From Candidatus Binatia bacterium (GTDB lineage: Bacteria; Desulfobacterota; Binatia; HRBIN30), in the NCBI GenBank assembly GCA_026004215.1, contig BPIR01000001.1, positions 1,543,860-1,607,859 of the forward strand: a stretch of 64,000 bases of DNA, read 5' to 3'. The notes under the pieces were generated by a model. That model did no database searches and was not told the origin of the DNA. It was given only the letters and a program-made list of their open reading frames with translations. Below, piece after piece: positions 1-3,829 of the stretch. How positions within the stretch are numbered: the first letter of the stretch is position 1; each line of letters starts with the position of its first letter. Both the position numbers and the translations under genes were made by a program.

Positions 1-426
1 TTCGATCCCGACGACGGCGGGGCGCCGGCGCTGAGCACGCAGATCCTGGTCTCCACCTCGACGCGGCAAGCCATCGCGCTCGGCGCGGACGGATCGGTGT
101 ACTGGGCGGAATCGCTGCACCATCGCGTGCGGCGCGTGCGCAACGGGGTGGTGGAGACGGTGGCGGGAGCCTACGCACAGGTGTGCCAGCCGGCCACCGA
201 CCGTTTCAATGCCTGCGGGGACGGCGGAGCGGCGCGGGGGCCGAGCAGGCGGCAGCGAAAAGTCCATGTTCCTGCCGGGCACCGACTGCGCGCCACCCGC
301 CCCACGGATTCGATCGTCCACTCACCGCAGCCCCCACGGGACACCCTCGACGAGAGCTGTGGGACGATGGAAGCGACCCTTCAGAGCTGTGCGCCGGACC
401 TTTGCGAGATCGGCCGCAGTCGTTAG
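1..426 (+). CDS. 3' end of an upstream Rhs/NHL-repeat paralog (partial; its C-terminus diverges after the shared block)
   Basis: Frame 1 is open from base 1 to the stop at 424-426. Bases 1-245 are near-identical (about 6 mismatches) to 3397-3641 inside the downstream Rhs-like gene and encode the same peptide (FDPDDGGAPALSTQILVSTSTRQAIALGADGSVYWAESLHHRVRRVRNG...). After GDGGAARGP the two copies diverge completely. Confidence 0.45.
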   Translation, partial: FDPDDGGAPALSTQILVSTSTRQAIALGADGSVYWAESLHHRVRRVRNGVVETVAGAYAQVCQPATDRFNACGDGGAARGPSRRQRKVHVPAGHRLRATRPTDSIVHSPQPPRDTLDESCGTMEATLQSCAPDLCEIGRSR

Positions 427-1078
427 GCCGCTCTCCTTGGAGTAGCAGTTCACCGATACTTCTTGCGGTACCGCGTGCACAACCTCGCACTGGAGGTACG
501 TTGCGGTCTCGCTCTTCAGCAGCGCGAGGCAGAACGGGCGGCCCGTTTCCAACGACACATTGGCGAGTTCCGGGAAATTGCCGAGTGCCTCCCGCGCGAG
601 TGGTGATCCGCTCCTAGAGCTCTGTCGCCGCTTTGTCCGTGAAGGTGAACGCGATGATGTTTGGCGGCGCGAGGGCGTCCGGGCCGGCCCGCTGCGGGCC
701 GAGACCTCGTGCGGCAAGTAGCCCACGAGGGGCCACGTCGCGCCCCTGGCGCTCGCGCAACCGCCCGATGCCGAGCGAATCGGGCACGCGTCGTGAGCCC
801 CCTTTTCGGAGCGCAAGCGCGGCACCCTATCATCGTTCCGCGATATCGCAGCCAATGGCGCAAGCTGCGGTCCTGCTTGGATCGCTCCGCCAATATCGTT
901 CGCGTCGTCCCCGACCGACCTTGCGCTTCGGCGCAAGCGACACGATCGCCTCGGATCCTGACACGATATTGCCCGAGAACCGCTGCGCTGCCAACATGGG
1001 CTGCCGAAACTGTGTCACAGTTTTGTTTGACTTCACCGGAAAGCTCGGACTAAAGCGCGCCACTAAAGTGCCAGACGA

Positions 1079-3829
1079 ATGACACGGGCTACAGCCGGCT
1101 GCAGCCAGCGCTCGACAGGGCTGTGCATCGTTTTCGTGCTTCTCCTGCCGATCGAGGGTGTGATTCTGAGTTCGCTCACGGCGTCTTCGAGCGCGGAGGA
1201 GCCCCCATGTCCCGCCGTGTCCTCCTGCTTGGCCGGAGTAGAGTTCGCGACGCCTGGCGACGCCGACTGCGACGGAGATGTGTCGAGCCTCGATCTCGAG
1301 CTGCTGATCCGCACGCTTTTCTGCGACGCTTGCCCGGAGTGCCGGGGAAAAGACGCGAACGAGGATGGCACGGTGTCGGCGGCGGATCTCACGGCTTTGG
1401 TGGCTGTCCTAGCTGAGCCAGTGCCGGCACCGACGGCAACACCCACGCCGGCAGTGACGAACCCCGTCCCGTCGGCAACGCCGCGTCCCGAACCCGACAC
1501 CCCAACACCCTCACCCACCGAAGAGCCCACGCCACAAGCGACCAGCTCGCCGGCGGCAAATGACGAGACGGTTGCGACAACGGTGTACGACTCGACGCGT
1601 TTTCTTTACGAGGGTGGAAACCCACAGCAAAAGGGAGTTGCTCCCGGGACGATCGAGCCGGCGCGGGTGGCGCTGGTGCGCGGACGCGTGCTCGACCGGG
1701 CGGGACGGGGATTCCCCGGGGTAACGGTGACGGTGCTGAACTGTCCCGAGTTCGGCCGCACGACGAGCGATGGCGCGGGGAACTACGCGCTGGCGGTCAA
1801 CGGCGGAGGCCAGCTCACGATCGACTTCCGCAAGGACGGCTTCGTCACGGTGCAGCGCCAGCTGCAGCCCGCCTGGCAGGACTGGGCAGTGGTGGACGAC
1901 ATCGTGATGACGCCGCTGGACACCGAGGCCACCCCGATCGATCTCTCCGGCAATACAACGGCGTGGCAGGTGCATCGGTCGAGCATGCAGAGCGATGTGG
2001 ACGGCACCCGGCGCGCCATGCCGCTGTTTCCGCCCGCCGTCACGGGTGAACTGCTCTTTGCGGACGGCAGCACGGCAGCGCTTGCCCGGTGCGCGGTGCG
2101 CGTGACGGAGGTCATCGTGGGGCCGATGGGCGAGGCGGCGATGCCGGCGGAGCTGCCGCCGACGAGCAACTATACCTACGCCGCCTCTGTCGATTGCGAT
2201 GAGGCGCTGGCCGCGAGCACCGAGCACACCGAGTTCAGTCCCTCGCTGCCGCTTTACGTGGAGAACTTCCTCGGCTTTCCGATCGGGATCGAGGTGCCCT
2301 ACGGCGTCTACGACTCCGCACGGGGTGTGTGGGAAGGCGCGCCGAACGGAGTGGTGCTGCGGGTGACGAGCATCACGGGCCAGATGGCCGATCTCGATCT
2401 CGACAGCGGCGATGGTGGCGATGCGCAGGCGGACCCGGAGCTGTACGCAACGTACGGCATCAGCGACGGCGAGCGCGCAACCCTGGCGGGCCTGAGCGCG
2501 CCCGGGATGGAGTACTGGCACGTCCAGGTGCGCCGCTTCTCGAAGGGGGATCTGAACTGGAGCGCGCTCTTGCCGGCGGGAGCTGGGGCAGCGCCGGGCG
2601 GCGGAACGAGCGGGGGCAACCCGGGACGGCGTCTGACGGACAAGGGGCCCAGGCAGTCGGGCTTCGGCACGATCGAGCCCGAGGAGCAGGTCTTTCACGA
2701 GGACATCGGCCTCGTCGGCCTGCCGTTCACCTTGCACTACACCTCGCGGCGCCAGCCGGGCAGGACGGCGGAGTACGAGGTAAGAGTCCCCATCACCGAT
2801 GCGACACCACCGGCGCCTCTGGAGAAGGTCGTCACGGAGCTTCGGGTGGCGGGGCGAGTGATTCAGAACGAGTGGACGAACGCACCGAACCAGACCGTGA
2901 CGCTCTCCTGGGACGGCCTCGACGCTTTCGGGCGGCCGGCGGTCGGGCGGCAGAAGGCGGAGGTGCGCATTGGCTACGTGTACGTGCCGCAGTTCGTGCG
3001 CGGCCTGGCCTTTGCGGTGCCGCGCTCGGAGGTGCTGCGGCAGGGCCGCGGCGGGCAGCGGCTGACGGTGTGGACGACTCAACCGGTGGCGCTCGGTGAG
3101 GTCGGTACCGAGGCGGCGGGACTCGGTGGCTGGACGCCGTCGATCCTGCACACCTACGACCCGGTGGGTCGCACGCTGCATCTGGGCGACGGCACGGTGC
3201 GCAGCGTGGAGGGCACGGTGTTGGCCTCCGAGGAGCTGGTCAGCGGAGGGGACCTGCCGGACCGCATCTTCCAAGTGCTCGCCGATCGCGACGGCTCGGT
3301 GGTGTTTCTCGAGCTCAGCGCCGGGGAATACCGTATCCGCCGCTACCGGCCGGACACCGGCGCGTTCGAGGTGATCGCCGGAGGCGGGACGGATTTCGAT
3401 CCCGACGACGGCGGGGCGCCGGCGCTGAGCACGCAGATCCTGGTCTCCACATCGACGCGGCAAGCCATCGCGCTCGGCGCGGACGGATCGGTGTACTGGG
3501 CGGAATCGCTGCACCATCGCGTGCGGCGCGTGCGCAACGGGGTGATGGAGACGGTGGCGGGAGCCTACGGACAGGTGTGCCAGCCGGCCACCGACCGTTT
3601 CAATGCCTGCGGGGACGGCGGAGCGGCGCGGGGGCCGACGCTGCACCGGCCGGAGGGTGGAACGTTACGCCTGACGTACGACGGGATCATCCCGTTGAGC
3701 GAGACTACCATCGACTACACGTACGACGAGCGCAGCCGACTACGATCCCACGGCCGGTCGCTGGACGGCGAAAGACCCTATCGGCTTCAACGGCTACCAA
3801 CGAAATCTTTACGCCTACGCGTACAATGA
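1079..3829 (+). CDS. Secreted Rhs/teneurin-like protein with dockerin-like repeat, PT linker, CarboxypepD_reg/TTR-like domain, NHL-like region and YD repeats; a frameshift near 3740 (conserved Rhs core-end motif continues in the +1 frame to 3890)
   Basis: 916-aa ORF with an N-terminal hydrophobic signal. It has a dockerin-type Ca-binding motif (DADCDGDVSSLDLELLIRTLF...NEDGTVSAADLTALVAVL) and a PT-rich linker. The C-terminus carries YD repeats (IDYTYDERSRL). The +1 frame from about 3738 reads YDPTAGRWTAKDPIGFNGYQRNLYAYAYNDPVN, the hallmark Rhs core terminus, with a stop at 3888-3890. Confidence 0.7.
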   Translation: MTRATAGCSQRSTGLCIVFVLLLPIEGVILSSLTASSSAEEPPCPAVSSCLAGVEFATPGDADCDGDVSSLDLELLIRTLFCDACPECRGKDANEDGTVSAADLTALVAVLAEPVPAPTATPTPAVTNPVPSATPRPEPDTPTPSPTEEPTPQATSSPAANDETVATTVYDSTRFLYEGGNPQQKGVAPGTIEPARVALVRGRVLDRAGRGFPGVTVTVLNCPEFGRTTSDGAGNYALAVNGGGQLTIDFRKDGFVTVQRQLQPAWQDWAVVDDIVMTPLDTEATPIDLSGNTTAWQVHRSSMQSDVDGTRRAMPLFPPAVTGELLFADGSTAALARCAVRVTEVIVGPMGEAAMPAELPPTSNYTYAASVDCDEALAASTEHTEFSPSLPLYVENFLGFPIGIEVPYGVYDSARGVWEGAPNGVVLRVTSITGQMADLDLDSGDGGDAQADPELYATYGISDGERATLAGLSAPGMEYWHVQVRRFSKGDLNWSALLPAGAGAAPGGGTSGGNPGRRLTDKGPRQSGFGTIEPEEQVFHEDIGLVGLPFTLHYTSRRQPGRTAEYEVRVPITDATPPAPLEKVVTELRVAGRVIQNEWTNAPNQTVTLSWDGLDAFGRPAVGRQKAEVRIGYVYVPQFVRGLAFAVPRSEVLRQGRGGQRLTVWTTQPVALGEVGTEAAGLGGWTPSILHTYDPVGRTLHLGDGTVRSVEGTVLASEELVSGGDLPDRIFQVLADRDGSVVFLELSAGEYRIRRYRPDTGAFEVIAGGGTDFDPDDGGAPALSTQILVSTSTRQAIALGADGSVYWAESLHHRVRRVRNGVMETVAGAYGQVCQPATDRFNACGDGGAARGPTLHRPEGGTLRLTYDGIIPLSETTIDYTYDERSRLRSHGRSLDGERPYRLQRLPTKSLRLRVQ

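Follow-up and report, generated by a model that had tools for sequence, protein, structure and literature searches.

Spontaneous tandem segmental duplications can arise by illegitimate joining at microhomologies and show RecA-dependent instability, with rates quoted in the discussion of PMC3967940. Bacterial teneurin-like proteins (TLPs) are polymorphic toxins in which an FN-plug, an NHL propeller and a YD-shell form a superfold; their N-terminal adhesion modules vary, the toxin lies at the C-terminus and the immunity gene follows downstream. The six phyla with TLPs given in the recent survey (PMC13018210) do not include Binatia/Desulfobacterota_B. In Rhs loci, gene copies share the 3′ end of the core, immediately before the toxin and immunity modules, and the orphan genes are without the 5′ delivery region (PMC3967940). 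The locus described here lies at the left end of a 64,000-nt stretch (hereafter the window) of the genome of a Candidatus Binatia bacterium (GCA_026004215.1, contig BPIR01000001.1, positions 1,543,860 to 1,607,859, forward strand). The KatS3 sample name and mgNNN bin names of this assembly match a study of Katase hot-spring sediment, sampled at 52 °C, in which PacBio HiFi reads with an N50 of 10.5 kb were assembled with metaFlye (PMC9671151). The locus contains two paralogous genes of the teneurin-like/Rhs family, the first cut by the left edge of the window (copy 1) and the second complete within it (copy 2), and it very probably represents a two-unit, head-to-tail tandem duplication of a 3,394-bp segment carrying a decayed teneurin-like gene.

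The sole repeat returned by self-BLASTN of the whole window is formed by bases 1-244 and 3395-3638, direct copies at an offset of 3394 nt that are identical at 241 of 244 positions (98.8%), with a chance expectation that is effectively zero. Each copy encodes, in the same frame, 81 aa ending in GDGGAARGP, and the three mismatches comprise one synonymous change (nt 57) and two that give V/M (nt 151) and A/G (nt 176) in copies 1 and 2, respectively. Past 244/3638 the identity drops at once to random. A sequence-only reading of this DNA had reported a near-identical 245-bp segment with about 6 differing positions, a shared peptide of ~80 aa with the same ending, and a 60-aa tail of copy 1 with a stop at 426. 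The repeat, the peptide and the tail with its stop (424-426) were all recovered by translation and comparison, with the second copy at 3395-3638 rather than 3397-3641 (2-3 nt off) and with 3 mismatches rather than about 6. The length of the repeat is another matter: copy 1 begins at window base 1, and it is the window edge that cuts the match to 244 bp. The repeat unit is in fact 3,394 bp long, because the full-length upstream protein is identical to copy 2 at 833 of 852 residues and the small open reading frames (ORFs) before each gene are identical. What had been taken for a 245-bp patch is thus a whole duplicated unit, comprising a helicase relic, the upstream region and the first 852 codons of the gene.

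The evidence for this unit comes from the annotated proteins of the contig. The ORF at 1079-3829 (916 aa) is an exact match to GIW44044.1 (KatS3mg077_1326), and among 5.8 billion proteins the only one more than 40% identical to it is GIW44041.1 (KatS3mg077_1323, 913 aa), encoded on the same 1.74-Mb contig of the genome KatS3mg077. The C-terminus of GIW44041.1 equals the translation of window 1-423 exactly, with the V and A specific to copy 1 and the 60-aa tail, which identifies it as the product of the gene truncated at the window edge. From Met1 to ...GAARGP the two proteins are 97.8% identical, and beyond this point they are unrelated, so the earlier claim of two Rhs/NHL-type paralogs is borne out, the genes being teneurin-like. 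Between them lie minus-strand ORFs with a coding-like GC content at third codon positions (GC3). By exact look-up, the ORF at 322-558(-), KatS3mg077_1324 (78 aa), is sequence-identical to KatS3mg077_1321, and that at 614-787(-), KatS3mg077_1325 (57 aa), to KatS3mg077_1322. The gene order 1321-1322-1323 / 1324-1325-1326 therefore presents the series 78 aa, 57 aa, gene twice in succession, head to tail, and the period of 3394 nt equals the span from base 245 to base 3638; by both gene order and period, the two units are adjacent, colinear, and in the same order and orientation. In the interval between the genes no tRNA or Rfam RNA gene was found, and promoter and terminator scans gave shuffle-level results only.

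The boundary at 244/3638 is a true rearrangement breakpoint, as the sequence-only reading had supposed, with identity lost immediately after it and one of its two sides native. In six homologues whose NHL blades were aligned, the blade takes the form C...C-GDGG-PAxxAxLxxPxG-VAV..DGS.Y. Copy 2 reads CGDGGAARGP/TLHRPEG across the boundary and retains L-x-x-P-x-G, and TBLASTN alignments of homologues against the window reach 3658-3661; copy 1 reads ...ARGP/SRRQRKVHV and does not retain the LxxPxG motif. Judged by these motifs, only copy 1 is rearranged at this point (called x below), copy 2 being native there, and since only copy 1 carries the novel joint, the pattern is that of a tandem-duplication junction and not of gene conversion between toxin paralogs. 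The interpretation of the boundary as a signature of gene conversion or C-terminus switching is not supported, and the boundary lies in NHL blade 2, far upstream of any YD shell or core end. The other side of the joint (point y, inside the helicase relic) is seen in an independent assembly: the Logan contig L024 (run DRR290133) matches the window at 100% from 1167 down to 244 and then continues for 26 nt that are unlike window 243-218. In window orientation the contig reads ...TCTCCGTTCCCCGGCCCAAACCAGGC-A-GCAGGCGG... here, and its flank is the other left neighbour of point y, as predicted either for the start of unit 1 on the left or for a haplotype without the duplication. The microhomology at the junction is 1 nt, because the two left flanks have only A244 in common. 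The NHL motif, the switch to the antisense of the relic and the L024 flank together show a single novel junction with a native distal copy.

The tail that copy 1 acquires at this junction gives no match to any Pfam family at E<=0.1, and its GC3 (0.73) lies below that of the gene body (0.83-0.88). Translated from the opposite strand, the sequence is ...NIIAFTFTDKAATEL (stop and frameshift) ...LGNFPELANVSLETGRPFCLALLK..., and once the frame is repaired this translation matches PF00580 UvrD-helicase (E 4.1e-6, 27.1 bits, cut-off 23) as well as PcrA/Rep/RecB models. Because this frame-joined opposite strand matches PF00580, the tail of copy 1 is the product of reading on, in antisense, through a decayed helicase gene, the relic probably extending to the junction at 245. 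A word-indexed protein search with the repaired relic returned nothing, although both 100%-identical relic ORFs are present in the same collection; this is a false negative, and negatives from this search are not trustworthy for short proteins.

Copy 2 shows what the duplicated gene encodes. It has a signal peptide, and Pfam places Dockerin_1 (aa 59-107) and TTR (aa 194-277, E 5e-21) in its N-terminal part, followed by PF24329 FN-plug_TEN1-4 (aa 569-635, E 6.8e-6, 26.7 bits), a score ~1 bit below the curated 27.8. The FN-plug family is also precomputed for GIW44041.1 and most of the colinear homologues, so that this hallmark of the TLPs, whose Pfam families are TTR_TEN1-4, FN-plug_TEN1-4, TEN_NHL and TEN_YD-shell, is present. 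The NHL β-propeller is incomplete, with ~2 blades (aa ~730-859), and PF25021 TEN_NHL reaches 14.1 bits against a cut-off of 27.1, over profile positions 111-155 of 357. Neither ORF contains an RHS_repeat or TEN_YD-shell match in Pfam, and all that remains of a YD shell is a ~25-aa remnant (3660-3735) and, separate from it, a fragment of 142 aa (5461-5886). Full NHL propellers and YD shells follow in colinear homologues, which are 1,200-1,600 aa long, and copy 2 is colinear with them only to nt 3658-3661.

Beyond x, copy 2 continues for seven native codons, after which GC falls from ~0.72 to 0.54-0.61, with a tail GC3 of 0.68. The tail begins GGTLRLTYDGIIPLSETTIDYTYDE and aligns to the YD repeats of one homologue (P0026); an indel or frameshift follows at ~3733-3738, and the true continuation, YDPTAGRWTAKDPIGFNGYQRNLYAYAYNDPVNT, lies in another frame. 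Hidden Markov model searches of both C-termini, as the sequence-only reading had proposed, give TIGR03696 Rhs_assc_core (E 3.8e-10, 40.1 bits, cut-off 32.5) for the copy 2 tail after frame repair, no toxin, and no Pfam match for the copy 1 tail. The remnant stops at NDPVNT plus 15 codons. What the sequence-only reading described as copy 2 running on into YD repeats and the Rhs core end is a ~25-aa YD remnant with an out-of-frame core end, and no toxin follows it. Neither tail is a toxin or immunity domain, and an in-frame Rhs-associated core end with a polymorphic C-terminal toxin is found in neither gene. Both copies comprise the N-terminal half only, and as the rest of the NHL propeller, the YD shell and the toxin are missing, they are not classed as functional members of the TLPs.

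It is nonetheless conceivable that the same structure houses working genes, the truncated dockerin-TTR-FN-plug-partial NHL proteins being functional at the cell surface or as secreted products and the duplication being kept by selection for dosage or through early sub-functionalisation. Both ORFs are intact, with 913 and 916 codons and a signal peptide, and long contigs carry homologues of similar length that have no YD shell (P0006, 910 aa; P0008, 837 aa; P0017, 738 aa); tandem duplications are, moreover, normally lost fast without selection (PMC3967940, discussion), yet these units have diverged. This reading is considered unlikely. The proteins would end in an incomplete β-propeller and junk, and two of six NHL blades are unlikely to fold; the neighbourhood is filled with relics; and the divergence is explicable by recombinational import rather than age. 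Two of the three visible nucleotide differences are non-synonymous, and the 1.2% rate extrapolated to 2,556 nt gives ~31 substitutions as against 19 amino acid changes, which suggests relaxed constraint. A more specific form of the idea, in which a stand-alone dockerin-TTR-FN-plug-partial-NHL protein has been freed from its toxin shell and two diverging tandem copies are kept as a secreted or surface adhesion protein, is less likely still. If it were true, bacteria would here mirror the way in which teneurin toxins were domesticated into adhesion receptors in animals, and the uneven divergence of the units (see below) would reflect selection or gene conversion.

A second alternative holds that the arrangement was made by the assembler, which would have mis-joined reads of two co-existing strains or haplotypes. 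The genome is a metagenome-assembled genome (MAG) from a complex hot-spring community, the units differ by ~1-2% over part of their length as strain variants might, and the Logan assembly of DRR290133 has an alternative left neighbour of 244 and breaks at 3790 and 5897. The x/y junction, however, joins non-homologous sequences, unlike haplotype collapse or mis-threading, and L024 shows in its alternative flank precisely the sequence that unit 1 requires on its left. The HiFi reads, which are of Q20 or better with an N50 of 10.5 kb and were assembled by metaFlye, are long enough for both units, 6.8 kb together (PMC9671151), and the unit-specific differences are preserved in the consensus. An artefact is therefore very improbable.

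The swapping of C-terminal toxin modules between Rhs paralogs by recombination or gene conversion at a short homology block, as in main and orphan rhs loci, is hardly credible, being already contradicted on its defining points: both genes do belong to a polymorphic-toxin family (Pfam; PMC13018210), their C-termini diverge directly past a sharp boundary, downstream of copy 2 lie a remnant of the Rhs core end and a small ORF of low GC, and Salmonella main and orphan rhs genes recombine via a 522-bp, 95% identical block (PMC3967940), but the homology here takes in all 852 5′ codons and the upstream DNA rather than a toxin-adjacent block, it ends in a blade of the propeller and not at the core end, one tail is an antisense helicase relic without a domain match and the other an out-of-frame core end without a toxin, and neither gene has a YD shell in which a toxin could be encapsulated.

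Tandem duplication with ordinary gene decay, not toxin swapping, accounts for the locus, and a history can be proposed for it. Before the event, the locus would have consisted of a decayed UvrD-like helicase gene on the minus strand, an upstream region and then the teneurin-like gene, which would have been stripped of its toxin, its YD shell and the greater part of its NHL propeller either before or after the duplication. Illegitimate recombination or a template switch with the single shared base A244 would then have joined x, which follows codon 852 within NHL blade 2, to y in the helicase relic, giving the product relic-gene5′ / relic-gene5′-rest. Copy 1 would thereafter run past the junction, continue antisense to the second relic and stop after 60 meaningless codons, and copy 2 would retain the original continuation for its 7 native NHL codons up to a separate break, older or younger, into the low-GC, frameshifted core-end remnant. 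Such an origin by illegitimate joining or template switching, rather than by recombination of pre-existing repeats, and the order of events appear likely, and both truncated genes are probably non-functional remnants. A Campbell-type or IS91-mediated insertion was considered as a distinct structure and set aside, since identical relic ORFs before both genes give the same two-unit tandem arrangement, leaving a difference in mechanism only. Being 98-100% identical, the 3.4-kb units should be substrates for RecA-dependent unequal crossing-over, which would collapse or amplify the array; the earlier suggestion that the repeat could drive a 3.4-kb deletion is plausible in that exactly one 3,394-bp unit would be removed, via the whole unit and not via the smaller repeat that had been claimed.

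Several observations weigh against this account. Both 5′ halves are open over 852 codons, which tempers the view of the genes as non-functional. The content of unit 1 upstream of the window is inferred from protein identities and the period, and an unduplicated co-existing haplotype would give the same alternative flank in L024. The break in copy 2 (~3660) is only ~22 nt from x, which is treated as a coincidence or as part of a complex event. Divergence between the units is also uneven: the two relic ORFs and codons 1-135 (window 245-1483) show 0 amino acid differences, and codons 136-831 (window 1484-3571) show 19; under uniform scatter, the probability computed from the difference counts is ~0.002-0.01. 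A single clean duplication with clock-like divergence is therefore insufficient, and a later exchange has to be assumed as well; the pattern would be explained either by gene conversion across the left third or by a diverged allele having been imported into the right two-thirds of one unit. At window 1616-1642 (copy 2 residues 180-188), 6 of 9 residues differ between the paralogs (GNPQQKGVA vs AGAPQTGVT), compared with 13 of 843 elsewhere, and each version retains some of the consensus of the homologues, NPIQTGVAPGTI; a micro-conversion patch or clustered mutation may be the cause. The features of the locus and its right flank are collected in Table 1.

Table 1. Coordinates of the duplicated units, their genes and the features to their right, in window positions.
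Feature	Position	Strand	Evidence
Remainder of tandem-repeat unit 1, upstream of the window	inferred -3149..0		
Last 244 nt of tandem-repeat unit 1, codons 772-852 of copy 1 (KatS3mg077_1323, GIW44041.1)	1..244	+	241/244 match; GIW44041.1 has the copy-1 V and A variants plus tail
Novel x/y junction of the tandem duplication, 1 nt microhomology (A244)	244..245		Identity with copy 2 ends at 244; L024 diverges there
60-aa tail of copy 1 and stop; read-through into unit 2, not a toxin domain	244..426	+	Translation; no Pfam at E<=0.1; antisense to relic
Tandem-repeat unit 2 (3,394 nt): UvrD-like relic, upstream region, first 852 codons of copy 2	245..3638	+	Unit length equals repeat offset; identical ORF pairs
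UvrD/REP-type helicase gene relic, stop and frameshift near 612-617; two annotated small ORFs	322..787	-	Frame-repaired PF00580 match
Upstream, probable regulatory region of copy 2, duplicated with the unit	788..1078		Logan contig L024 covers 244-1167, single path, 100%
Teneurin-like copy 2 (KatS3mg077_1326, GIW44044.1, 916 aa)	1079..3829	+	Pfam; exact match; colinear with homologues
Stretch of copy 2 matching window 1-244	3395..3638	+	Repeat comparison
Native NHL blade 2 continuation in copy 2 (TLHRPEG; LxxPxG)	3639..3659	+	Six-homologue blade alignment; TBLASTN to 3658-3661
Last YD repeats and Rhs-associated core-end remnant (…YDPTAGRWTAKDPIGFNGYQRNLYAYAYNDPVNT), ending before any cleavage motif or toxin	3660..3838	+	TIGR03696; P0026 alignment; lower GC
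Low-GC ORF KatS3mg077_1327 (197 aa, signal peptide), conserved hypothetical family	3887..4480	+	100% match to P0038; 41 homologues
24-nt direct repeat flanking IS91-family transposase C-terminal relic	4807-4830 and 5438-5461; relic ~5178-5333	relic -	23/24 identical
Orphan YD-repeat fragment (~142 aa)	5461..5886	+	TIGR01643 YD_repeat_2x 19.5 bits (cut-off 15.8); GC3 0.91
TauE/SafE family gene, first conserved chromosomal gene right of the variable region	6077..7006	+	PF01925 E 2.1e-35

To the right of copy 2, the GC content of 3835-4806 is 44-51% in a genome of 60-70% GC. The homologues of KatS3mg077_1327, an ORF in this segment, reach at most 71% identity (in a Bacteroidia MAG), and none of the 41 has a Pfam domain; the family consists of ~195-aa secreted proteins with members in Bacteroidia, Blastocatellia and many metagenomes, a distribution that suggests spread by horizontal transfer. 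An immunity role is possible for the protein. The neighbourhoods of its homologues (L002-L004) hold mobile-element genes, NHL fragments and a C92 peptidase, with no consistent Rhs/TLP partner, and no toxin is left at the present locus for it to pair with. A small lipoprotein-like ORF (MRILFLFPVALLFVGCSN...) lies at 4506-4664, and a truncated zinc-ribbon reading frame (KKCPDCAEEIKFEAKVCG, ~4745-4806) ends exactly at the start of the left 24-nt repeat. This repeat, GATAGGCATTC(G/C)AATCACCTTGGA, has two sites only in the window, bracketing 607 nt, and 0 matches are expected by chance; it may be an element end, a target duplication or a recombination site. In TBLASTN against plasmids, the IS91 relic between the two sites is 54-58% identical to features that carry the annotation IS91 family transposase.

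The orphan YD fragment beyond the second 24-nt site resembles the teneurin-like gene body in codon usage and is probably a leftover of the original YD shell. BLASTP of the fragment against the fetched homologues gave nothing significant, TIGR01643 being the sole support for its assignment. Because GC3 is 0.91 in this fragment (5461-5886) and 0.68 in the core-end remnant of copy 2 (3660-3838), the two Rhs-type remnants are probably of different origin, the one from the native shell and the other from an imported tip.

The synteny of TauE, PAP2 and orf7742 is kept in three related Binatia genomes (L005, L006, L007) without the teneurin-like region. In these (locus ~5100-9900), a block of ADH_zinc, thiolase-like, luciferase-like monooxygenase and alpha/beta-hydrolase genes stands directly upstream of TauE, and this block is absent from the window. 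Since relatives are without a teneurin-like gene beside TauE, the teneurin-like region is taken to be a lineage-specific accessory insertion that has since decayed. The Logan contig L001 reproduces window 3790-5897 exactly. Short-k Logan contigs of DRR290133 break off at 3790, 5897 and 1167, and at 244, the duplication junction, they part from the window; the three ends may be further branch points, from variants or repeats, in the read set. The remaining window consists of ordinary chromosomal genes. Among metabolic genes there (hydantoinase A/B, thiolase, PAP2, histidine kinase) are a 365-aa secreted-looking ORF at 8732-9829, with no Pfam match and a hydrophobic, Arg-rich C-terminus, and a 1,348-aa ORF at 43002-47048 with a lactonase-type β-propeller match only.

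The result is mostly a correction, namely that a repeat touching the edge of a window cannot be sized from that window. No new mechanism is opened by it, nor is a long-standing question made testable. Its contribution is a documented instance of a teneurin-like polymorphic-toxin gene that was duplicated in situ and decayed, in a phylum outside the recent TLP survey, and it gives a duplication junction resolved to the base pair, with 1-nt microhomology.

In comparison with the TLPs, the N-terminal two-thirds of both copies are colinear with family members at 35-45% identity and share with them the TTR, the FN-plug, NHL blades with the C..C-GDGG motif, the signal peptide and an adhesion-type N-terminal module, in this case a dockerin. 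Unlike the TLPs, both copies end after ~2 NHL blades, with no YD shell, in-frame Rhs-associated core or toxin. Extra TLP copies in the published survey come mostly from independent transfer and not from duplication (PMC13018210), whereas the second copy here was formed by tandem duplication in situ. The Salmonella rhs-main/rhs-CT-orphan loci (PMC3967940) resemble this locus in that direct repeats lie within a polymorphic-toxin locus, identity ends abruptly and the 3′ ends differ, and in that duplication and homologous recombination can reshape the locus. In contrast to the main/orphan arrays, the shared part here is the upstream DNA with codons 1-852, ending in NHL blade 2 rather than in a 3′ core block; unlike the orphans, both copies have full N-termini, with the same Met and the first 135 residues identical; and neither tail encodes a toxin. 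With spontaneous tandem segmental duplications the locus shares two head-to-tail units, one novel junction with 1 nt of microhomology, an unaltered distal copy and a unit length equal to the spacing. Nothing essential differs from these; what is unusual is the uneven divergence of the units and the truncation, before or after the event, of the duplicated gene. Both the event, a tandem segmental duplication, and the gene, that of a teneurin-like/Rhs toxin in decay, are of known kinds.

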